From: a virus
DNA length: 16,064 nucleotides
Reading direction: 5' to 3' (one strand)
UHGV virus genome: UHGV-0097682
Under the pieces are notes generated by a model that was not told the origin of the DNA, did not search any database, and was given only the letters and a program-made list of their open reading frames with translations. A program made the translations under genes and the position numbers. Below, in pieces: positions 1 through 15,777 of this stretch. How positions within the stretch are numbered: position 1 is the stretch's first letter; each line of letters begins with the position of its first letter.

Positions 1-1429
1 GTTCATACACAATGGTCGGGTCAATCCCGCCAGTATCCCAGCAGATACGGGATACCGACATTTCTGCACCATTCCGGCGGGTATAGGTTTTATTGATGGC
101 CTCATCCACACGCAGCAGCGTCTGTTCATCGTCGTGGCGACCCATAATAATCTGCCGGTCAATCAGCCAGCTTTCCTCACCCGGCCCCCATCCCCATACG
201 CGCATTTCGTAGCGGTCCAGCTGGGAGTCGATACCGGCGGTCAGGTAAGCCACACGGTCAGGAACGGGCGCTGAATAATGCTCTTTCCGCTCTGCCATCA
301 CTTCAGCATCCGGACGTTCGCCAATTTTCGCCTCCCACGTCTCACCGAGCGTGGTGTTTACGAAGGTTTTACGTTTTCCCGTATCCCCTTTCGTTTTCAT
401 CCAGTCTTTGACAATCTGCACCCAGGTGGTGAACGGGCTGTACGCCGTCCAGATGTGAAAGGTCACACTGTCCGGCGGCTCAATCTCTTCACCGGATGAC
501 GAAAACCAGAGAATGCCATCACGGGTCCAGATCCCGGTCTTTTCGCAGATATAACGGGCATCAGTAAAGTCCAGCTCCTGCTGGCGGATGACGCAGGCAT
601 TATGCTCGCAGAGATAAAACACGCTGGAGGGGTCATCCGGCGTCCATTTGAGGCCAAACGGCGTCTCTTTGTCGCCAAATTTAAGGTACTGCTCCTCCCC
701 GCAGTGCGGGCAGGCAACATGAAAACGCATAAAATGCGGGGATTCACTGGCTGCACGCTCAATCTGACAGGTGCCTCTCACTTTTGGCGTGGAGCCACGG
801 ATGGACTTTGGCCAGACCGAGCCTTCAATACGCTTGTCACCCAGGAACGTCGGAGAGCCTTCCTGTTCAATATCATCATCAAAAGCAGCAAGTTCATCAT
901 AACCCGCCACATCCACCGACTTTTCACGGTAGTTTTTTGCCGCTTTACCGCCCAGGCACCAGAAGCCACGCCCATTAGTGAAACGCTTCATGGTGAGCGT
1001 GTTATCCCGGTGCTTTTTGCCATACCACGGGGCCAGCGCCAGCAGCGACGGAATATCACGAATAGTCGGCTCAACGTGGGTTTTCATAAAGTTCTCGGCA
1101 TCACCATCCGTCGGCAACCAGATAAGGGTGTTGCGCTGCTTATGCTCTATGAAGTAGGCATAAACACCCAGCAGCATTTTGGAATAACCGACACGGGCAG
1201 ACTTCACCACATTCACCTCACGGATGTAGTCGCTGCCCATCGCATTCATGATGGCCCGCTGAAAGGGCAGTGTTTCCCAGCGCCCTTCCTGGTATGCGGA
1301 TTCTTTCGGGAGATAGTAATTGGCATCCGCCCATTCAACGGCGGTCTGTGGCTCCGGCCTGAACAGTGAGCGAAGCCCGGCGCGGACAAAATGCCGCAGC
1401 CTGTTAACCTGACTGTTCGATATATTCAC
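1..1429 (-). CDS. A: Terminase large subunit (lambda gpA-like), partial; C-terminal part lies beyond the window start
   Basis: Minus-strand frame is open from the window edge to a GTG start at 1427-1429 that overlaps the Nu1 stop by 26 nt. Translation begins MNISNSQVNRLRHF..., which I recognise as lambda gpA. Absent from the ORF track because it is partial. Confidence 0.92.
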   Translation of the reverse strand, partial: MNISNSQVNRLRHFVRAGLRSLFRPEPQTAVEWADANYYLPKESAYQEGRWETLPFQRAIMNAMGSDYIREVNVVKSARVGYSKMLLGVYAYFIEHKQRNTLIWLPTDGDAENFMKTHVEPTIRDIPSLLALAPWYGKKHRDNTLTMKRFTNGRGFWCLGGKAAKNYREKSVDVAGYDELAAFDDDIEQEGSPTFLGDKRIEGSVWPKSIRGSTPKVRGTCQIERAASESPHFMRFHVACPHCGEEQYLKFGDKETPFGLKWTPDDPSSVFYLCEHNACVIRQQELDFTDARYICEKTGIWTRDGILWFSSSGEEIEPPDSVTFHIWTAYSPFTTWVQIVKDWMKTKGDTGKRKTFVNTTLGETWEAKIGERPDAEVMAERKEHYSAPVPDRVAYLTAGIDSQLDRYEMRVWGWGPGEESWLIDRQIIMGRHDDEQTLLRVDEAINKTYTRRNGAEMSVSRICWDTGGIDPTIVYE

Positions 1430-1949
1430 TCAGCAACCCCGGTATCAGTTCATCCAGCGCGGCTGCTTTGTTCATGGCTTTGATGATATCCCGTTTCAGG
1501 AAATCAACATGTCGGTTTTCCAGTTCCGGAAAACGCCGCTGCACCGACAGGGGGATCCCGTCGAGAATACTGGCAATTTCACCTGCGATCCGCGACAGCA
1601 CGAAAGTACAGAATGCGGTTTCCACCACTTCAGCGGAGTCTCTGGCATTTTTCAGCTCCTGTGCGTCGGCCTGCGCACGCGTAAGTCGATGGCGTTCGTA
1701 CTCAATAGTCCCTGGCTGGAGATCTGTCTCGCTGGCCTGGCGCAGTTCTTCAACCTCCCGGCGCAGCTTTTCGTTCTCAATTTCAGCATCCCTTTCGGCA
1801 TACCATTTTATAACGGCGGCAGAGTCATAAAGCACCTCATTACCCTTGCCACCGCCTCGCAGAACGGGCATTCCCTGTTCCTGCCAGTTCTGAATGGTAC
1901 GGATACTCGCACCGAAAATGTCAGCCAGCTGCTTTTTGTTGACTTCCAT
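1404..1949 (-). CDS. nu1: Terminase small subunit (lambda Nu1-like), 181 aa
   Basis: Track ORF MEVNKKQLADIFGASIRTIQNWQEQGMPVLRGG...SEYIEQSG matches lambda Nu1 almost residue for residue by recollection. It sits immediately next to cos and overlaps the A start. Confidence 0.95.
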   Translation of the reverse strand: MEVNKKQLADIFGASIRTIQNWQEQGMPVLRGGGKGNEVLYDSAAVIKWYAERDAEIENEKLRREVEELRQASETDLQPGTIEYERHRLTRAQADAQELKNARDSAEVVETAFCTFVLSRIAGEIASILDGIPLSVQRRFPELENRHVDFLKRDIIKAMNKAAALDELIPGLLSEYIEQSG

Positions 1950-2126
1950 TGTTCATTCCACGGCCAAAAACAGAGAAAGGAAACGACAAAGGCCCAAAAG
2001 TTCGTTTTCAGCACCTGTCGTTTCCTTTCTTTTCAGGGGGTATTTTAAATAAAAACATTAAGTTACGACGAAGAAGAACGGAAACGCCTTAAACCGGAAA
2101 ATTTTCATAAATAGCGAAAACCCGCG

Positions 2127-2138
2127 AGGTCGCCGCCC
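2127..2138. other. cos: cosN cohesive-end site (12-nt lambda-type overhang sequence); cosB expected between here and Nu1, cosQ on the other side
   Basis: Plus strand reads aggtcgccgccc, the reverse complement of the lambda cohesive end GGGCGGCGACCT. The flanking sequence cgcgggttttcgctatttatgaaaattttccgg (reverse complement) matches the lambda left end by recollection. Confidence 0.85.
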
Positions 2139-2337
2139 CGTAACCTGTCGGATCGCCGGAAAGGACCCGCAAAATGATAATAATTATCATCTGCATGTCA
2201 CAACGTGCATCTACGCCATCAAACCACGTCAAATAATCAATTATGACGCAGGTATCGTATTAATTGATCTGCATCAACTTAACGTAAAAACAACTTCAGA
2301 CAATACAAATCATCGACACTGAATACAGGGCAACCTC

Positions 2338-2571
2338 ATGTCAACGAAGAACAGAACCCGCAGAACAACAACCCGCAACATCCGCTTTCCTAACCAAATG
2401 ATTGAACAAATTAACATCGCTCTTGTTCAAAAAGGGTCCGGGAATTTCTCAGCCTGGGTCATTGAAGCCTGCCGCCGGAGACTGTGCTCAGAAAAAAGAG
2501 TTTCGCCTGAAGCAAACAAAGAAAAGAGTGACATTACTGAATTGCTCAGAAAACAGGTCAGACCAGATTGA
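2338..2571 (+). CDS. Small basic hypothetical protein, possible ribbon-helix-helix DNA-binding fold; resembles a small lambda right-arm ORF
   Basis: Track ORF MSTKNRTRRTTTRNIRFPNQMIEQINIALVQKGSGNFSAWVIEACRRRL... has a basic N-terminus and an RHH-like segment. The N-terminal two thirds match a lambda right-end ORF as I remember it; the C-terminus differs. Confidence 0.55.
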   Translation: MSTKNRTRRTTTRNIRFPNQMIEQINIALVQKGSGNFSAWVIEACRRRLCSEKRVSPEANKEKSDITELLRKQVRPD

Positions 2572-2628
2572 AGCAATTTAGATAATCGTGCAGACTACGC
2601 CCCCTCATATCACATGGAAGGTACTACA

Positions 2629-3039
2629 ATGGCTCAGGTTGCCATTTTTAAACAAATATTCGATAAAGTGCGAAATAATTTAAACTATCACTGGTTTTAT
2701 TCTGAACTAAAACGTCACAATGTCTCACATTACATTTACTATTTAGCCACAGAGAATATTCATCTTGTTCTTGAAAACGATAATACGGTTTTAATAAAAG
2801 GACAGGGTAAGGTTGTAAATGTAAGATTTTCAAAAAATAAATGCCTTATAGAAGCCACCTTAAAAGGATTCAAATCAGGAGAGTTATCATTTTACGAATA
2901 CAGGAAAAATCTTGCTACAGCAGGGGTTTTCAGATGGATTACAAATATCCACGAAAACAAAAGGTATTACTATACCTTTGATAATTCATTACTCTTTACT
3001 GAGAACATTCAGAACACTACACAAATATTTCCGCACTAA
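2629..3039 (+). CDS. Hypothetical phage protein, AT-rich; resembles the lambda right-arm 'putative envelope protein' / E. coli YbcV-like family by recollection
   Basis: Track ORF 2614-3039. The likely true start is the ATG at 2629 ([11 protein letters not shown]...), preceded by ggaagg at 2616-2621. A hairpin at 3049-3085 lies just past the stop. Confidence 0.6.
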
Positions 3040-3632
3040 ATCATAACGTCCGGTTTCTTCCGTGCCAGAACCGGACTCGCTGGCATGATGAAATATGTGT
3101 ACCCGGTAACCCCGGTGTGCATCGTTTTTGATTATTCCCGCACACTCGCGCAGAAGGAGTTCCCCGTCGGGCTACGGTCTCTGTTAATACGGGAATACGG
3201 CGACGATACAGCGCATGATGTGTCAGGCTTGAATACCTTTATCCTTTAAAAGGGATATCAGTTAAGTTATCCCGTGTAGGGTATAAGCCATTATCAAAGC
3301 CACTCTGTAGGGAATGGCTTTTGTGATGGCATCACTTACTCTTTACGCTGCTATCCCACTCATCCCGGAATTTTGATGGGTTATTGAAACCTTCTGCTGA
3401 CATAACAACTCCTTCAATGTTTGGCTGAAATTAGGATGTCTTTCCATCAGTCCGCCACCACAAAGAATCTTTTTTGCCATAAGGCAGGAGGTTCATCTTT
3501 CAGTGGCTGCCGGTGTTATTTCCCCACTTACTGGCTTGGGTTGTTTCGTGGTACTGCCGTTAACTGGTGGCCCAGAATAAATTCCGGTTTCATTATCAAG
3601 CCCACCCGTAGATAGGCTTTGTAATGACATCT

Positions 3633-4157
3633 TCAATTAATCAGCAGTTCAGGCTGTGTCACCTGCAAGATGTATTCATGCTCGACAGCCAGGACACGCT
3701 TCTCTTTCTTCCGTTCGTTCATTAACCGACTGCCGATCGTACCTTTCAGCTTTGAGCGTGTTTCTTTGATGGCGTAGCGGTGCTGCATTTCTTCGCCAAT
3801 TGCCATGCGGCGGCTCAGTTGCTCTGCCATCCAGTTGAATGCTGCGATATAGCTCTCCTTGATTGCCGCAGCAGCTTTCCCGGTGAACCCCATCACAACC
3901 ATGATCCAGCCATCTTTCGTCAGGCTGTACATCGGGCGAACCTTGCCCTGCTCATCGATATAATCAGCCGACGCAAAATTGCGTTGGCTAAACTCACGCG
4001 AGCAATCAGCCTTAACCTGCTCGATTTTCCTGAGAACATCACCGTGTCGCTTGCCGAAGTACTTGGCAATTTTTCTGGATGTGGTAACGACCTCTCCGTT
4101 TTTGGCTTGCACCATTTCTCGGAAGTCGAAGGCTGGAATAACTGAATGATTATTCAT
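3633..4157 (-). CDS. Rha-family phage regulatory protein (antirepressor-like)
   Basis: Track ORF 3633-4193 begins at a GTG. The internal ATG at 4155-4157 (MNNHSVIPAFDFREMVQAKNGEVVTTSRKIAKYFGKRHGDVLRKIEQV...) is the more likely start. The N-terminal region looks like the Rha/phage-regulatory domain family. Confidence 0.6.
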   Translation of the reverse strand: MNNHSVIPAFDFREMVQAKNGEVVTTSRKIAKYFGKRHGDVLRKIEQVKADCSREFSQRNFASADYIDEQGKVRPMYSLTKDGWIMVVMGFTGKAAAAIKESYIAAFNWMAEQLSRRMAIGEEMQHRYAIKETRSKLKGTIGSRLMNERKKEKRVLAVEHEYILQVTQPELLIN

Positions 4158-4299
4158 AGCGTCTTTACCTTTTAGAAAGTGAGCCTGTCTCACAGAAAAG
4201 CCGCCCGAGAGAGGTCGCCACCTATAACGGCATTTCTCAGGCTCGCTTACTGAAAGGCTCTCGTTAATATGCGCGTGAGATGCGCTGTGAAATTCAGAT

Positions 4300-4498: not shown

Positions 4499-4966
4499 TC
4501 ATCGAAGGCATTGCGTCCTGATGTATTCCTGAAGCGTTCTCAGTGCTGTTTGGTCGCGGATAATTCCGTCCCGGATACCGAGAACGTTTCGTCCAGCAAC
4601 TGGAGAGAGTTCGACGGTGGCATCATTGCCCATGCCGGAGGCGCTGGAGGTTTCGGCTGAGGATGGCACAGGGCATTTTCCTTTGACGAGCACCCTGCCA
4701 CCATTATCAAGCTTGCGCCGAAGAGCATCATTTTCAGCTTTCGCATCAGCTAACTCCTTCGTGTATTTAGCATCGAGTGCATCAGCAGCACGCTGGCGTC
4801 GCTGCATGTCAGTAATGGTGGCGGCCGCCTGCTTCAGCTCACTGACTTTTTTATCACGCTGTTCTTTGTAGGCGATGGCGTTATCACGGTAATGATTAAC
4901 AGCCCATGACAGGCAGACGATGATGCAGATAACCAGAGCAGAGATAATCGCGGTGACTCTGCTCAT
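4499..4966 (-). CDS. Rz: Rz i-spanin (inner-membrane spanin subunit)
   Basis: Track [34 protein letters not shown]... The first ~30 residues are lambda Rz-like with an N-terminal TM segment; the C-terminal half diverges from lambda. Its ATG overlaps the R stop (ATGA). Confidence 0.9.
4540..4746 (-). CDS. Rz1: Rz1 o-spanin (outer-membrane lipoprotein), embedded in the +1 frame of Rz
   Basis: Track [25 protein letters not shown]... has a signal peptide with lipobox VAGC and a Pro-rich segment ([16 protein letters not shown]). It is wholly embedded within Rz, as in lambda. Confidence 0.75.
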
Positions 4967-5439
4967 ACCTCAATCTCTCTGACCGTTCCGCCAGCCTCTT
5001 TGAATTTTGCAATCAGGCTGTCAGCCTTATGCTCGAACTGACCATAACCAGCCCCCGGCAGTGAAGCCCAGATGTTGCTGCAACGGTCGATAGCCTGACG
5101 GATATCACCGCGATCAATCATCGGCAAAGCGCCACGTTCCTTAATCTGCTGCAGCGCAACAGCGTCCTGGCTTTTGGGAGAGAAGTCTTTCAGGCCAAGC
5201 TGCTTACGATAGGCATCCCACCAACGGGAAAGAAGCTGGTAACGTCCGGCTGCTGTTGATTTGAGTTTGGGGTTTAGCGTGACAAGTTTGCGAGGGTGAT
5301 CGGAGTAATCAGTGAATAGCTCTCCGCCTACAATGACGTCATAACCGTGATTTCTGGTTTTCTGCCGTCCGTTATCTGTTCCTTCTGACCACGCCAGCAT
5401 ATCGAGGAACGCCTTACGTTGATTATTGATTTCCACCAT
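4963..5439 (-). CDS. R: Endolysin R (lambda-type lytic transglycosylase), 158 aa
   Basis: Track [52 protein letters not shown]... is near-identical to lambda R by recollection. Confidence 0.95.
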
Positions 5440-5746
5440 CTTCTACTCCGGCTTTTTTAGCAGCGAAGCGTTTGATAAGCGAACCAATCGAGTCAGTACC
5501 GATGTAGCCGATGAACACGCTCGTTATATAAGCGAGATTGCTACTTAGTCCGGCGAAGTCGAGAAGGTCACGAATGAACCAGGCGATAATGGCGCACATC
5601 GTTGCGTCGATTACTGTTTTTGTAAACGCACCGCCATTATATCTGCCGCGAAGGTACACCATTGCAAACGCAAGGATTGCCCCGATGCCTTGTTCCTTTG
5701 CCGCGAGAATGGCGGCTAACAGGTCATGTTTTTCTGGCATCTTCAT
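5423..5746 (-). CDS. S: Holin S (class I, lambda S107/S105 dual-start type), 107 aa
   Basis: Track [32 protein letters not shown]... is near-identical to lambda S. The Met1-Lys2-Met3 dual-start motif is present. Confidence 0.95.
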
Positions 5747-5988
5747 GTCTTACCCCCAATAAGGGGATTTGCTCTATTTAATTAGGAATAAGGTCTATTA
5801 CTGATAGAACAAATCCAGGCTACTGTGTTTAGTAATCAGATTTGTTCGTGACCGATATGCACGGGCAAAACGGCAGGAGGTTGTTAGCGCAGCCTCTTGC
5901 CACCCGCTTTCACGAAGGTCATGTGTAGAAGGCCGCAGCGTAACTATCACTGATGAGTTCAGGATAGCCAGTGGCTACGGCTCAGTTA

Positions 5989-6064
5989 TGGTGCTGGTTA
6001 ACGGACTTGAACCGCTACCCATTCGCTTACAAGGCGACCGCTCTACCATTGGAGCTAAACCAGC
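5989..6064 (-). tRNA. tRNA, anticodon read as UGU (Thr); 76 nt with encoded CCA
   Basis: Minus-strand sequence GCTGGTT-TA-GCTC-CAATGGTA-GAGC-G-GTCGC-CTTGTAA-GCGAA-TGGGT-AGCGG-TTCAAGT-CCGTT-AACCAGC-A-CCA folds by hand into a canonical cloverleaf. The acceptor stem is a perfect 7 bp; the D-loop has GG and the T-loop is TTCAAGT. The anticodon stem has one mismatch. Confidence 0.6.
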
Positions 6065-6069
6065 ATATT

Positions 6070-6144
6070 TGGCGGGACAGCGTGGACTCGAACCACGATA
6101 AGAAGGTTAACAGCCTTCCGTAATGACCTTTATACGACTGACCC
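6070..6144 (-). tRNA. tRNA-like gene, anticodon read as GUU (Asn); 75 nt with encoded CCA
   Basis: Minus-strand sequence GGGTCAG-TC-GTAT-AAAGGTCA-TTAC-G-GAAGG-CTGTTAA-CCTTC-TTAT-CGTGG-TTCGAGT-CCACG-CTGTCCC-G-CCA. The anticodon and T arms are perfect. The acceptor stem has one T-T mismatch and the D-stem is only 3 bp, so it may be partly degenerate. Confidence 0.5.
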
Positions 6145-6145
6145 A

Positions 6146-6207
6146 AATAAAAAATCCCGAAACCGTTGTGCAGGCTCTAACTATTACCTGCGAACTGTTT
6201 CGGGATT
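6146..6207 (-). terminator. tR' terminator (end of the short pR' leader transcript, lambda 6S RNA equivalent)
   Basis: Minus strand reads aucccgaaac...guuucgggau followed by uuuuuuau, a long GC-containing stem with a U-run. It lies about 190 nt downstream of the predicted pR' start, matching the lambda arrangement. Confidence 0.7.
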
Positions 6208-6339
6208 GCATTTTGCAGACCTCTCAGCCTGCGATGGTTGGAGTTCCAGACGATACGTCGAAGTGACCAACTAGGCGGAATCGGTAGTAAGCGCCGCCTC
6301 TTTTCATCTCACTACCACAACGAGCGAATTAACCCATCG

Positions 6340-6376
6340 TTGGGTCAAATTTACCCAACTTTATTCAAAAAGTCAA
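6340..6376 (-). promoter_or_regulatory. Late promoter pR' with expected qut site (Q-utilisation)
   Basis: Minus strand has TTGACT (-35; plus-strand 6371-6376), a 17-nt spacer and TAAATT (-10; plus-strand 6348-6353), immediately downstream of the Q stop. The sequence matches lambda pR' by recollection. Confidence 0.7.
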
Positions 6377-6418
6377 TATTATGCCGTTAATATGTTGCCA
6401 TCCGTGGCAATCATGCTG

Positions 6419-7042
6419 TTAACGTGTGACCGCATTCAAAATGTTGTCTGCGATTGACTCTTCTTTGTGGCATTGCACCACCAGAGCGTCATACAGCGGC
6501 TTAACAGTGCGTGACCAGGTGGGTTGAGTAAGGTTTGGGATTAGCATCGTTACAGCGCGATATGCGGCGCTTGCTGGCATTCTTGAATAGCCGACACCTT
6601 TGCATCTTCCGCACTCTTTCTCAACAACTCTCCCCCACTGCTCTGTTTTGGCTATATCAACCGCACGGCCTGTACCGTGGCAATCTCTGCATCTTGCGCC
6701 CGGCGTCGCGGCACTACGGCAATAATCCGCATAAGCGAATGTTGCGAGCACTTGCAGTACCTTTGCCTTAGTATTTCCTTCAAGCTTTGCAACGCCACGG
6801 TATTTCCCCGATACCTTGTGTGCAAATTGCATCAGATAGTTGATAGCCTTTTGTTTGTCGTTCTGGCTGAGTTCGTGCTTACCACAGAATGCAGCCATTC
6901 CGAATCCGGCTTGTGATTGCGCCATCCCCATAGCAGCCATCACATCAGTACCGGAAAGAGAGTCAGAAGCCGTAGCCCGTGGTGAGTCGCTCATCATCGG
7001 GCTTTTTGGCGAATGAAATTTAGCTGCGCTTTCGAGTCTCAT
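6419..7042 (-). CDS. Q: Late-gene antiterminator Q (lambda-type), 207 aa
   Basis: Track ORF MRLESAAKFHSPKSPMMSDSPRATASDSLSG... is near-identical to lambda Q. The zinc-binding Cys cluster (CRDCHGTG...CGRCKG) is present. Confidence 0.95.
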   Translation of the reverse strand: MRLESAAKFHSPKSPMMSDSPRATASDSLSGTDVMAAMGMAQSQAGFGMAAFCGKHELSQNDKQKAINYLMQFAHKVSGKYRGVAKLEGNTKAKVLQVLATFAYADYCRSAATPGARCRDCHGTGRAVDIAKTEQWGRVVEKECGRCKGVGYSRMPASAAYRAVTMLIPNLTQPTWSRTVKPLYDALVVQCHKEESIADNILNAVTR

Positions 7043-13013: not shown

Positions 13014-13098
13014 TTCTTAAGATTTCCAATAGTGAATAGTTAGTTGAAAGGTATGCGTGGAAACGCATATGGCCTTAGTTGGTCAGATATCTTGGAAC

Positions 13099-13144
13099 TC
13101 GCTTTTCAGCGACGTAGGACGAATGTCCGTTGTTACAAAGAGCG
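13099..13144 (-). promoter_or_regulatory. nutR: nutR (boxA + boxB) N-utilisation site
   Basis: Minus strand has boxA CGCTCTTTGTAACAA, a 17-nt spacer, then boxB hairpin TCGCT-GAAA-AGCGA (5-bp stem, GAAA loop). It lies between the cro stop and cII. Confidence 0.55.
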
Positions 13145-13154
13145 GATCCGCTTA

Positions 13155-13370
13155 TTAAGCGGCTTTGTGTTCCGGCGGGAACACGTCATCAAGACTGACT
13201 TTTGCGCCTAACTTGTTTAGGCACGCAACAAGAGCACGGCATGTTTTAAGGTCTGGGAAGCGACGACCAGATTCCCAATGTCCGATAGCTCCCTGTGTGC
13301 ATCCAACTGCCTTAGCAAGTGTTGTTTGAGAGATATTCAGTGACTCTCGATATTTTCGTAGGTTGCTCAT
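13155..13370 (-). CDS. cro: Cro-like repressor (HTH), 71 aa
   Basis: Internal start of track ORF 13155-13541: MSNLRKYRESLNISQTTLAKAVGCTQGAIGHWESGRRFP... The ATG at 13368-13370 is preceded by GGAGGG. The HTH recognition helix (TQGAIGHW) is paralogous to the cI one (TQGGIGHW). It is divergent from cI. Confidence 0.8.
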   Translation of the reverse strand: MSNLRKYRESLNISQTTLAKAVGCTQGAIGHWESGRRFPDLKTCRALVACLNKLGAKVSLDDVFPPEHKAA

Positions 13371-13487
13371 ATGCCCTCCATAGTAAACACGAATAAAAAA
13401 ATACAATATGTACTTTGCGAATACAAGTAAAAATACATATTGTGCATGGATGGTTCCAGTACAGAGCGTAATAATAAGGACATGAAA
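13371..13487. promoter_or_regulatory. OR operator / pR-pRM divergent promoter region
   Basis: Intergenic region between divergent cro and cI. Imperfect palindromic sites of the form TACA-N3-TGTA occur at 13402-13412 (tacaatatgta) and 13434-13444 (tacatattgtg), with a weaker candidate between them. Confidence 0.6.
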
Positions 13488-14138
13488 ATGAAATGGTATG
13501 AACTGGCTAGATCCAGAATGAAAGAGCTCGGCATAACTCAAGAGAAGTTAGCCGAAGAGCTAGGTATGACGCAGGGTGGGATTGGACACTGGTTGCGCGG
13601 ATCTCGTCATCCATCTCTTAGTGATATTGGTGTGGTGTTTAAATACCTTGGTATTGATAACATATCATTCAACCACGACGGGACATTTTCACCTGTTGGC
13701 GAATACTCATCGGCCCCAGTTAAAAAACAATATGAGTACCCTGTTTTTTCTCATGTTCAGGCTGGGATGTTCTCTCCAGAACTCAGAACCTTTACCAAAG
13801 GCGATGCGGAGAGATTGGTAAGCACAACCAAAAAAGCCAGTGACTCTGCATTCTGGCTTGAGGTTGAAGGTAACTCAATGACCGCACCAACAGGTTCCAA
13901 ACCCAGCTTTCCTGACGGGATGTTAATTCTGGTTGACCCTGAGCAAGCTGTTGAGCCCGGCGATTTCTGCATAGCCAGACTTGGTGGTGATGAATTTACC
14001 TTCAAGAAACTGATCAGGGATAGCGGTCAGGTGTTTCTACAGCCACTAAACCCACAATACCCAATCCCATGCAATGAGAGTTGTTCCGTTGTGGGGAAAG
14101 TTATCGCCAGCCAATGGCCTGAAGAGACGTTTGGGTGA
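13488..14138 (+). CDS. cI: CI repressor: N-terminal HTH domain of non-lambda specificity fused to a lambda-type C-terminal autocleavage/dimerisation domain (S24-like)
   Basis: Track ORF 13440-14138. The likely start is the ATG at 13488 (MKWYELARS...), with aagga 8 nt upstream; the ATG at 13482 is an alternative. The C-terminal ~130 aa match lambda CI by recollection, including the Ala-Gly cleavage site (VQAGMF), the catalytic Ser (GNSMT) and Lys (FTFKKL). The N-terminal domain differs from lambda. Confidence 0.9.
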
Positions 14139-14177
14139 TGAAACCACTTTTATCTACAATTTACAGGGCGGTAAACA

Positions 14178-14735
14178 TTGGCAAAAATAGATGATTATCA
14201 GCCAAGCCAAGTAGAAGTTGATAAAGTACTTTATTGTAAAAAAATAGTTAACTTTTCTGGCGTTAAATGGAAACAGAAACCAAGTCGCTCTGATATGTGG
14301 CTACAAGCCCATATCATCCCCTTGGATGAGGATTGTATACCTATACAAGGGCTAAAGTTTGAACTGAAATGGAAACCAGATCAGGATTCAGAACCTGATG
14401 ACCCGATTTCTTACCCTAAAATAAATATTATTGCTTTCTATCATAACAAGAGGGTTTTCGCGGTAGATACCTATCACTTTGACAAACACACGAATAGTTA
14501 CAAGGTCGATCATCCGAAGTACCAAGATATCATTTACGGTGCTCACTACCATGTATACTATGAAGAAGCTGGATACTATAGTGATAGAATAGCGTTTCCA
14601 ATCGAAGATGACATAAACCCAGATGACCTGGTAGGGTATTGGAATTACTTCTGTAAACATCTGAACATAACTTACTCTGGGAGAATACCTTTACCGCTTG
14701 AAGATGAGTCGGGGCAAATGGGGTTTGGAATATGA
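14178..14735 (+). CDS. Hypothetical protein, 185 aa, His/Tyr/Asp-rich; first gene of the AT-rich operon downstream of cI (rexA position)
   Basis: Track ORF with a TTG start; the first in-frame ATG is at codon 40. There are no TM segments and no Walker motif. Codon usage is visibly AT-rich compared with cI. Its stop overlaps the next gene's ATG (ATGA). Confidence 0.6.
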   Translation: MAKIDDYQPSQVEVDKVLYCKKIVNFSGVKWKQKPSRSDMWLQAHIIPLDEDCIPIQGLKFELKWKPDQDSEPDDPISYPKINIIAFYHNKRVFAVDTYHFDKHTNSYKVDHPKYQDIIYGAHYHVYYEEAGYYSDRIAFPIEDDINPDDLVGYWNYFCKHLNITYSGRIPLPLEDESGQMGFGI

Positions 14736-15484
14736 TGTGCTCAACAGTGATCTCACAACTAGGTTTCGAATGCCATCCAATAGGCAAGACCTTGAGAATT
14801 ATCAGTCCATTCACTTACTGTGATGATGGAGAGCATGTCGGTGCCTTTATCCGTGAAGTCAATGGTAGGTATTTAGTTAGTGACAGATGCGATGCCTTAA
14901 TGAATATGGAGGCAAGAGGGATCTCGCTTACCAAAAAACGACTTGATGAGATACGACAATTACTGCTTAAAGAAGGCGCAGAACTCAATGCTCGAGGAGA
15001 AATCATTGCTTGGGCAACAGAAAAGGATGTCGGTGCGATTACATCGAACATAATTAGAGCTGGTATACTCGCATCAACTTTGTCGTTAGACTGGTATCAG
15101 CCAGTTCAAGCTGAAAAGTTTGAAAGTATGGTTATTGATTATCTATATCACACAGAGCTTAGAGACGCACTTTCTCTTCGTGAAAACGTATATGGCTTGA
15201 GTGGACATCAAATTACCGTCCCTGTAACAATAAAAACCGACATACCTAAATACGTTTTTACATCAAGCGTGAAACACGGAGGAAGCTGGAATAGTGCTTA
15301 CTCATTGCTTGGGAAACTAATTGATCTTAAAGCTTCAAGTGAGGAGTATAACAACAGATTTGTTGTTATAGACAGCGAAGCAATTGGTGATCAAATGCAA
15401 CAACTCTCCTTACTCTTCCATGAATCAAGCCAAGTTCTACCATTCTCCAAAAGAGAGACTTGGGTTAAGAGACTTGCAGCATAA
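14732..15484 (+). CDS. Hypothetical protein, 250 aa; second gene of the cI-downstream operon (rexB position, but not RexB-like)
   Basis: Track ORF MMCSTVISQLGFECHPIGKTLRIISPFTY... appears soluble and has no recognisable catalytic motif by eye. It is followed by a terminator. Confidence 0.65.
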   Translation: MMCSTVISQLGFECHPIGKTLRIISPFTYCDDGEHVGAFIREVNGRYLVSDRCDALMNMEARGISLTKKRLDEIRQLLLKEGAELNARGEIIAWATEKDVGAITSNIIRAGILASTLSLDWYQPVQAEKFESMVIDYLYHTELRDALSLRENVYGLSGHQITVPVTIKTDIPKYVFTSSVKHGGSWNSAYSLLGKLIDLKASSEEYNNRFVVIDSEAIGDQMQQLSLLFHESSQVLPFSKRETWVKRLAA

Positions 15485-15489
15485 TACAA

Positions 15490-15515
15490 CCCGGCCTCAG
15501 CGCCGGGTTTTCTTT
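15490..15515 (+). terminator. Rho-independent terminator ending the cI operon (tImm-like)
   Basis: Stem cccggc / gccggg with a 6-nt loop, followed by ttttctttg, 6 nt after the stop of the 250-aa gene. Confidence 0.55.
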
Positions 15516-15702
15516 GCCTCACGTTCGCCCACCTAAAAACACATAACCAATTATATTTATTGAAAAATAAATAGATGCAACCCACTAAACCACGCAATTC
15601 TGATCTCTCCTTACATCGCCGAGGCAATACATCCACGCTAAAAAACAACACTATTAAATACAAAGCGTTATAAAAAACCACGCCAACTTACAACAAATTA
15701 TA

Positions 15703-15731
15703 TTGATCTTGTAAAGTACATATCGTACTAT
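15703..15731 (+). promoter_or_regulatory. Putative pL promoter with overlapping OL operator
   Basis: TTGATC (-35, 15703-15708), a 17-nt spacer and TACTAT (-10, 15726-15731). The operator-like palindrome tacatatcgta (15717-15727) overlaps the -10. The orientation and distance to nutL and N fit the lambda layout. Confidence 0.45.
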
Positions 15732-15777
15732 TTAACCGTCAGCAGGACGCTGGAAGCCAAATGGAACAGACTGGCAG

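Follow-up and report, generated by a model that had tools for sequence, protein, structure and literature searches.

A tRNA-Asn–tRNA-Thr cassette behind the late terminator of a lambda-type phage: identity, selection and a possible role as nuclease-resistant tRNA replacements

The tRNA pair and the late-operon leader

The present analysis concerns two tandem tRNA genes, one for tRNA-Asn(GUU) and one for tRNA-Thr(UGU), in the late-operon leader of the virus genome UHGV-0097682, of which a stretch of 16,064 nucleotides (the window) was analysed as a whole. ARAGORN reported two tRNAs in total in the window. The tRNA-Thr (anticodon tgt) occupies 5989-6064 and the tRNA-Asn (gtt) 6070-6144; both lie on the minus strand, and the 5-nt spacer AATAT (6065-6069, read directly from the sequence) separates them. 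The Rfam model RF00005 scored them at 61.2 bits (E = 2e-11) and 55.3 bits (E = 8.5e-10), respectively, well above its gathering score of 29, and both calls are therefore far beyond chance. As the minus strand is that of the late operon, the order of transcription is Asn, then Thr. An earlier note on this DNA had folded two tRNAs by hand at 5989-6144 with anticodons UGU and GUU; both programs agree with these coordinates and anticodons, and neither scored either gene as a non-tRNA. The pair is the known, published and widespread Asn-Thr cassette of phages 21, Sf6 and SfI, carried here on a lambda-type Q/tR'/S backbone, and is not novel.

Both genes display the cloverleaf score, compensatory helices, loops and discriminators of canonical bacterial-type tRNAs. 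Each encodes its CCA end, the discriminators are those expected (G73 for Asn, A73 for Thr), and the 7-nt anticodon loops, CUGUUAA in Asn and CUUGUAA in Thr, carry U33 and a purine at 37; the D-loops contain GG, and the T-loops, GGTTCGAGTCC and GGTTCAAGTCC, conform to GGTTCRA. The tRNA-Asn is of a phage-lineage type with the anticodon stem GAAGG/CCUUC, and the Rfam alignment marks two of its pairs, 4:69 and 13:22, as U•U, the latter leaving a 3-bp D-stem; these are the acceptor-stem T-T mismatch and short D-stem remarked in the earlier note. The tRNA-Thr, with G1-C72 and C2-G71 in its acceptor stem, has the anticodon arm GUCGC-CUUGUAA-GCGAA, in which U28-A42 is paired and G27•A43 is not, so that its anticodon stem is of 4 bp. 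The G27•A43 mismatch is flagged by Rfam and was found in 11 of 14 variants of the family. Apart from the two programs, both assignments are backed by identity to phage 21 and by covariation, as described below.

The pair lies between the late-gene antiterminator Q and the lysis genes. Q (6419-7042, minus strand) encodes a lambda-type protein of 207 amino acids and is annotated as late gene regulator Q in HK446, in Kapi1 and in the 100%-identical phiv205-1. The late promoter pR' (TTGACT-17-TAAATT, 6348-6376, minus strand) aligns with lambda pR' and with a site of HK446 described as 'similar to lambda PR''; in a consensus scan of 5400-6500 it was the sole sigma-70-like site on the late strand, and the scan gave neither a separate promoter for the tRNAs nor any promoter-like site on the plus strand. 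The leader from pR' runs for ~194 nt and ends in the long hairpin (−26.9 kcal/mol) and U6AUUU tract of the intrinsic terminator tR' (6145-6207, minus strand), which has almost the same sequence as lambda tR'. Immediately after its T-tract tail, TTTTTTATTT, comes tRNA-Asn, which starts 3 nt past the T-tract, so that the tRNAs lie beyond the Q-controlled terminator. On the other side, the ~62 nt following tRNA-Thr (TAACTGAGCCGTAGCC...GCGGCCTTCT; 5927-5988, minus strand) form a mosaic junction that sequence comparison finds in several backbones, namely phage 21, P22-like contigs and lambda, with phage 21 departing beyond it. A leader of 242 nt, conserved with lambda, separates tRNA-Thr from the holin gene S (5423-5746), the first protein-coding gene of the late operon, which is followed by the endolysin gene R (4963-5439) and the spanin gene Rz (4499-4966), all three on the minus strand and annotated in phiv205-1, Kapi1 and HK446. 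No open reading frame (ORF) of at least 51 amino acids, and no toxin cargo, was found between Q and S (5747-6418), as the earlier note had stated for toxin ORFs.

When the locus was aligned with lambda, the flanks were 97-98% identical on either side, and ~157 bp here stand for ~160 bp of lambda (~44782-44942). The left junction falls within the tR' T-tract tail, directly after TTTTTTAT, and the right junction directly before AACTGAGCCGTAGCC. Since conserved flanks bracket the tRNA block as well as the lambda block, the two are alternative alleles and not the outcome of an insertion into lambda. The earlier note had the pair inserted between tR' and the holin gene; ARAGORN, Rfam and the alignment agree on the position, on the late-operon strand directly downstream of tR' and upstream of S, while the near-equal lengths speak for allelic replacement rather than insertion. 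Lambda itself carries no tRNAs in this slot, as had been claimed, and by alignment and Rfam no remnant of any. The lambda allele as a decayed form of the tRNA pair was likewise ruled out, as the two blocks are identical at 59 of 157 positions and the lambda block gave no tRNA-like Rfam match at E<=1.

Distribution of the cassette and selection on the cloverleafs

The segment 5400-6900 of the window is 100% identical to phiv205-1, and the same block occurs in Kapi1, HK446 and mEp506. A 164-bp block holding the pair matches SfI at 100% identity and Sf6, BTP1 (98.8%), SPN9CC and others at 98-99%; 168 phage records match it, 59 of them over at least 80% of its length. In the SfI/Sf6/BTP1/Kapi1/HK446 group the cassette occupies the same slot between Q and the lysis genes, and the surrounding mosaic alone differs. 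Among 5,426 complete Escherichia coli genomes, 369 (~7%) carry it too, and PGAP annotates tRNA-Thr and tRNA-Asn there. The genome paper of SfI described the tandem Asn(GUU) and Thr(UGU) genes in 2013 and placed the same tRNA genes in Sf6, ST64T, PS3 and phage 21 (PMC3636060). With the cassette annotated in many GenBank and RefSeq records, a printed description of 2013 and a functional test of the phage 21 tRNA-Thr in 2025, its occurrence here is an ordinary finding.

Phage 21 (OL657228.1), one of the closest known systems, has the same order of terminator, tRNA-Asn, 5-nt spacer, tRNA-Thr, ~62 nt of shared flank and holin. In its curated record the late terminator ends at 39590, tRNA-Asn occupies 39591-39665 and tRNA-Thr 39671-39746, and S21 follows. 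The window tRNA-Asn is identical to that of phage 21 at 75 of 75 positions; the window tRNA-Thr matches the phage 21 gene (Thr21) at 75 of 76, the difference lying at hinge nt 26 alone, so that the anticodon arm (nt 27-43) is identical. The spacer reads AACAT in phage 21 and AATAT in the window. The surroundings differ: in the window Q, pR', qut, tR' and S are of lambda type, whereas phage 21 has Q21, the pinholin S21 and a short leader. The late region of phage 21 is reportedly the subject of a 1991 study by Guo, Kainz and Roberts.

Among viral contigs, a plain 20-mer scan found the cassette in at least 120. The scan was seeded on a 20-mer from the tRNA-Asn D-arm, by which the presence of tRNA-Asn in these contigs is circular, and its informative part is confined to the position of Asn as first gene and to the adjoining terminator. 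The 5' end of tRNA-Asn adjoins a terminator in nearly all of the 120; ~93 have a terminator of the phage-21/P22 type and ~14 a lambda-type tR', both with the junction TTTTTTATTT followed directly by GGGTCAG, while in ~10 Klebsiella-type contigs the terminator sits further upstream. Of the arrays, 96 are Asn-Thr and 7 Asn-Gly, 4 consist of Asn alone, and the remainder include Asn-Phe-Thr-Arg; Asn comes first in all. The window pair belongs to this cassette by position as well, with tRNA-Asn next to a Q-controlled late terminator and the lysis genes downstream. An identical tRNA-Asn sequence recurs in E. coli, Shigella and Salmonella, on backbones of the lambda, 21 and P22 types.

The earlier note had also set the pair in the context of Shiga toxin-converting phages, in which this slot carries tRNAs and toxin genes. 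That context is borne out for the slot, since 933W has pR', qut, terminators, pT (a putative tRNA promoter), ileZ, argN, argO and stx2AB in this order before S. The tRNA set is not shared; 933W carries Ile, Arg and Arg tRNAs and, besides its toxin genes, over 4 kb of additional cargo, whereas the slot in the window has 157 bp with no ORFs and nothing of the 933W type of tRNA and toxin cargo.

The same note had suggested that the GUU tRNA may be decaying, and here the comparison with relatives gives a different answer. An alignment of 15 distinct variants of the tRNA-Asn lineage, including those of T4-like phages (STP4-a, MP1) and of the jumbo phage Serratia BF, has 92.1% of its cells paired as compared to 34-50% with slid partners; 11 of 21 pairs have changed on both sides, and none of 500 shuffles reaches the observed value. 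For tRNA-Thr, 95.6% of the cells are paired and 9 of 21 pairs are double-sided, with G1-C72 and C2-G71 invariant; the slid controls across both alignments range from 17 to 50%. The U13•U22 pair is found in all 15 Asn variants, within the lineage-typical D-arm CGTATAAAGGyyATTACG, and, being invariant in so characteristic an arm, is a trait of the lineage and not damage. The 4:69 pair is U•U in the lambdoid copies and U·G or C-G in distant relatives; U4•U69 is kept across three compensated acceptor-stem backgrounds (CAG/CTG, CGA/TCG and AGG/CCT), in which the pairs 5:68, 6:67 and 7:66 co-vary. Folding energies lend weaker support, with z-scores of −1.7 and −1.5 and a minimum-free-energy fold of tRNA-Thr that is not the cloverleaf; therefore, covariance-model scores and covariation were relied upon. 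Purifying selection acts on both genes, which are bona fide cloverleaf tRNAs, and the odd features, that is the U•U pairs and the 4-bp anticodon stem, are selected traits, which corrects the decay reading.

Where degeneration is seen in relatives, it hits the second gene and not tRNA-Asn. In ST64T (AY052766, 1285-1353) the tRNA-like gene after tRNA-Asn has a 4-nt anticodon loop, scores 42 bits with Rfam and gets no ARAGORN call; it is unable to decode and may be a pseudogene, possibly a tRNA-like decoy. In JLK-2012 (NC_049942; 1285-1438, 2265-2437) the tRNA-Thr is a chimera with a 5' half of phage type and a 3' half resembling host thrU, in which two anticodon-stem pairs are broken (A27•C43 and C28•U42), which again shortens the anticodon stem. 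It is followed by a T4-like tRNA-Gly(UCC) whose D-arm is close to that of the cassette tRNA-Asn and, further downstream and past tciA/tciB, by the STnc100 small RNA (107 bits).

The annotation of these genes is uneven. The pair is unannotated in the RefSeq entry of HK446 (NC_019714.1), in phiv205-1 (MN340231.1) and in ST64T (AY052766.1), and the homologous tRNA-Asn of Serratia phage BF (KY630187.1) carries the label 'tRNA-Pseudo', probably due to the U13•U22 D-stem of the lineage. On this point no trust should be placed in scanners or annotators that overlook such genes or label them as pseudo, as in these four records.

Resistance to tRNA-cutting nucleases and alternative roles

The reading we prefer, with a probability of roughly 0.6, is that the pair are functional phage tRNAs of the late-operon leader, made in dependence on Q, which act as nuclease-resistant replacements for the host's tRNA-Thr(UGU) and for its tRNA-Asn(GUU). 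It starts from published experiments on P2-OLD, which acts as effector in the classic P2-lambda interference and, by cleaving the host tRNA-Thr(UGU), causes the death of lambda-infected cells (Govande et al. 2025, PMC12445682). In tRNA-ThrU the cuts of P2-OLD fall after the C of paired CNG motifs, which lie at nt 28-30 and 40-42; Asn(GUU), Lys and Val tRNAs are slower substrates (PMC12445682). Phage tRNA-Thr(UGU) variants rescue the cells; resistance, for which the anticodon arm is decisive, requires both an altered CNG and a shortened stem of that arm (PMC12445682). Thr21, with C28U/G42A and a shorter stem, 'also protected against P2-OLD', and its resistance to cleavage was seen in vitro (PMC12445682).

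At the CNG positions the window tRNA-Thr reads UCG/CGA, as against CUG/CAG in the host gene, including the C28U/G42A of Thr21, and its 27:43 pair is lost; it has, in other words, the altered motifs at 28-30/40-42 and the shortened stem of the resistant tRNA-Thr sequences. The host thrU stem is ACUGA/UCAGU, and that of host asnT is GCGGA/UCCGU, with a paired CNG and U39, neither of which is found in the window tRNA-Asn stem. Host thrU and asnT share with the cassette tRNAs the anticodons, the 7-nt loops and the synthetase identity elements, and differ strongly from them in the stems; the host tRNAs have a 5-bp anticodon stem with paired CNG motifs and U39, and the cassette tRNAs have neither those motifs nor U39. 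The phage tRNA-Asn further departs from asnT in its D-arm, in a variable loop of 4 nt and in its G1-C72 acceptor end. Evasion via mutations in the anticodon loop was considered and ruled out, as both loops equal the host loops and the differences lie in the anticodon stem.

A second nuclease points to the same arm. AriB of the PARIS system cleaves tRNA-Lys(UUU) best, then Thr(UGU), then Asn(GUU), between nt 40 and 41 and near U36AAU39 (Belukhina et al., PMC12409363); a U39→A change abolishes cleavage and A41→C inhibits it (PMC12409363). The Lys, Thr and Asn tRNAs of T5 together neutralise PARIS, and the T5 tRNA-Lys is required for escape (PMC12409363). With a position indexing that reproduces the published T5 tRNA-Lys site (UAAACC), nt 36-41 read UAAUCA in host thrU and UAAUCC in host asnT, UAAGCA and UAAGUU in the T5 Thr and Asn tRNAs, and UAAGCG and UAACCU in the window Thr and Asn tRNAs. 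Both cassette tRNAs are substituted at U39 and/or 41. The T5 set accordingly shares with the window pair both anticodons and a non-U at 39 that breaks U36AAU39, and differs in its unrelated tRNA lineage, its own early promoters and its additional tRNA-Lys(UUU); ARAGORN found no tRNA-Lys(UUU) in the window, and none was seen in any array variant, so a T5-type set is absent. Judged by their sequences, both cassette tRNAs are thus counterparts of tRNAs that two Toprim nucleases cleave, with changes at the recognition positions.

The resistance-like features appear specific to the lambdoid type, since the tRNA-Thr of P1/P7-type phages retains CUG/CAG and a 5-bp stem. In P1/P7 (P7, NC_050152, 325-478) and in phages of ~108 kb, a tRNA-Asn is likewise followed by a tRNA-Thr, of a different sequence lineage; the two are directly adjacent in P7 and Cyrano, and a tRNA-Tyr intervenes in CMS-2020a. 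As P1/P7, Cyrano and CMS-2020a carry pairs of different lineages, the Asn-Thr pairing recurs across unrelated groups of temperate phages. The tRNA-Thr of Cyrano has the CUG/CAG and 5-bp anticodon stem seen in P7, and that of CMS-2020a has a cassette-type arm (GUCGC/GCGAA).

The mechanism proposed begins with Toprim nucleases borne by prophages or satellites (P2-OLD, PARIS AriB), which abort lambdoid infection and cut the host Thr and Asn tRNAs in the anticodon stem. The phage tRNAs would be made through Q-mediated readthrough from pR', some perhaps also from leak through tR' in lysogens, and would be cut from the transcript by host tRNA-processing enzymes. The resistant phage tRNA-Thr would then replace the cut host tRNA, a step that leans on the experiment with the near-identical phage 21 gene; the window allele (G26) is expected to behave like Thr21, and the resistance of the phage tRNA-Asn is predicted likewise from its sequence alone. 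Added decoding of the rare ACA codon may be a compatible secondary benefit. Published transcriptomes bear on expression. In BTP1 lysogens the two tRNA genes are set apart from a list of five genes with more than 100 transcripts per million (PMC7067206), by which abundance of both is implied. RNA-seq of a Kapi1 lysogen has a clear signal antisense to the tRNAs, and BTP1 has a similar one between the tRNAs and the holin gene (PMC12922286); it could be a library artefact of an abundant structured RNA, or an unrecognised transcript.

Several points weigh against the nuclease-resistance reading. The tRNA-Thr alone gives a partial rescue from P2-OLD, with small colonies (PMC12445682), and the window gene differs at nt 26 from the Thr21 that was tested. 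No published experiment on the cassette tRNA-Asn was found, and in the Klebsiella-type variant of this tRNA (Mulock) the stem is CAG/CUG, so that loss of CNG is not universal. A non-U at position 39 occurs by chance in many tRNAs. The cassette has no tRNA-Lys(UUU), the primary target of AriB, and as the T5 tRNA-Lys is required for escape, the pair alone should not defeat PARIS of the B185 type. Full expression behind tR' needs Q, yet Q has 4 ACA codons of its own, which must be read before the resistant tRNA builds up. Finally, ACA is enriched 2-3-fold in these phages (PMC3636060 for SfI), which would fit simple codon supplementation as well.

A more tentative extension, to which we give somewhat less than an even chance, is that tRNA-Asn(GUU), with its CNG-free and U39-free stem, is no codon supplement but the partner of tRNA-Thr in a two-tRNA module dedicated to counter-defence against OLD-family and PARIS nucleases, in which leak through tR' would pre-load lysogens, the onset of Q would flood the cell, and the lambda allele would represent the 'susceptible' state behind P2 interference. 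It offers a sequence-level hypothesis for the otherwise unexplained Asn partner by tying it to secondary targets of two Toprim defence nucleases. Of most interest is the prospect that tRNA-Asn is a nuclease-proof replacement like its Thr partner. If the cassette does blunt abortive infection of the OLD/PARIS type, this would bear on prophage competition and, with ~7% of E. coli genomes carrying it, on the prediction of host range for phage therapy.

Among the alternatives, codon supplementation survives best. By this account the tRNAs boost the decoding of codons favoured by the phage, chiefly ACA, and so speed the synthesis of late proteins. The ACA codon occurs 10-18 times per 1000 codons in lambdoid genes as compared to 5.4 in a sample of 42 genes of E. 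coli K-12, and its host reader, thrU, is a single-copy gene of low abundance. The SfI authors proposed a codon role, with ACA at 17.3 versus 7.1, and saw no Asn bias, calling the significance of the Asn tRNA 'not clear' (PMC3636060). Lambda, which is without the cassette, has an equal enrichment (10.4 in late and 17.3 in early genes); the ACA bias therefore does not track the tRNAs, and codon usage as the sole explanation is ruled out. The bias is moreover greater in early genes (18/1000) than in late genes (11/1000), and the former are expressed before a tRNA placed after tR' would accumulate. For Asn, AAT/AAC usage is near host values, although the late genes of HK446 are somewhat Asn-rich (5.1% versus 3.6-3.8%), which favours supplementation; the host has four asn tRNA genes, which counts against it. 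Codon supply is thus plausible for Thr, and explains neither the Asn partner nor the specific changes of the anticodon stems. As the principal role of the pair it is unlikely, though compatible with counter-defence, as one tRNA can serve both.

It is considerably less probable that the tRNAs act mainly as RNA-processing punctuation, that is, as RNase P/RNase E signals that detach the leader and hairpin and set the 5' end of the late mRNA. That tRNA-Asn always directly adjoins the late terminator, of which at least three unrelated types occur, agrees with such a role, and the host thrU-tufB operon, with tRNAs upstream of an mRNA, is a precedent. A pure processing signal would need neither the aminoacylation identity elements nor the anticodons, both of which are conserved; the same tRNA-Asn lineage occurs in ordinary T4-like tRNA clusters, away from late terminators, and lambda copes without the pair.

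Least probable by far is that the GUU tRNA or the whole pair is a non-functional relic carried along by mosaic recombination, since against the two U•U pairs of tRNA-Asn, the modest z-scores, the non-cloverleaf fold of tRNA-Thr and the degenerate second genes of ST64T and JLK-2012 stand the compensatory covariation of both genes, the invariant U13•U22 and the retention of U4•U69 beside co-varying pairs, the conserved identity elements (G34U35U36 and G73 in Asn; G1-C72, C2-G71, G35U36 and A73 in Thr) with the encoded CCA, the identity of tRNA-Asn over three backbone types and three host genera, and the biological activity of the near-identical Thr21.

Other genes of the window

The window as a whole is part of a mosaic prophage. 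Its segment 3238-13045 is 99.5% identical to the P22-like phiv205-1 and to prophages of avian pathogenic E. coli, and the immunity region, within 13045-16064, differs as well. No single record among the phage records or complete E. coli genomes searched holds the whole window, and none covers at least 80% of it. The left end (1-3237) is lambda/HK630-like, with Nu1 at 1404-1949 (minus strand; Pfam, 336 bits), cos near 1950 and a DUF1398/lambdap78-like gene at 2614-3039.

Two co-oriented ORFs, 14178-14735 and 14732-15484 (both plus strand), lie just downstream of cI (13440-14138, plus strand), at the place of rexAB in lambda. Both match the PADLOC candidate defence system PDC-M24, the B subunit over its full length (E = 4.7e-10) and the A subunit weakly (E = 4.8e-4); they further match Pfam DUF6978 (below cut-off) and DUF1828, and both belong to PHROG families of unknown function. 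Going by these matches, the pair beside cI is a candidate prophage-encoded defence moron.

On the late strand, between Rz and cos, a gene at 3633-4193 (minus strand) encodes a Rha-family regulator (Pfam, 98.9 bits), and HK446 has a KilA-N gene at the matching place. With the Rha gene here and KilA-N in HK446, the Rz-cos interval constitutes a further variable cargo slot of the late operon.

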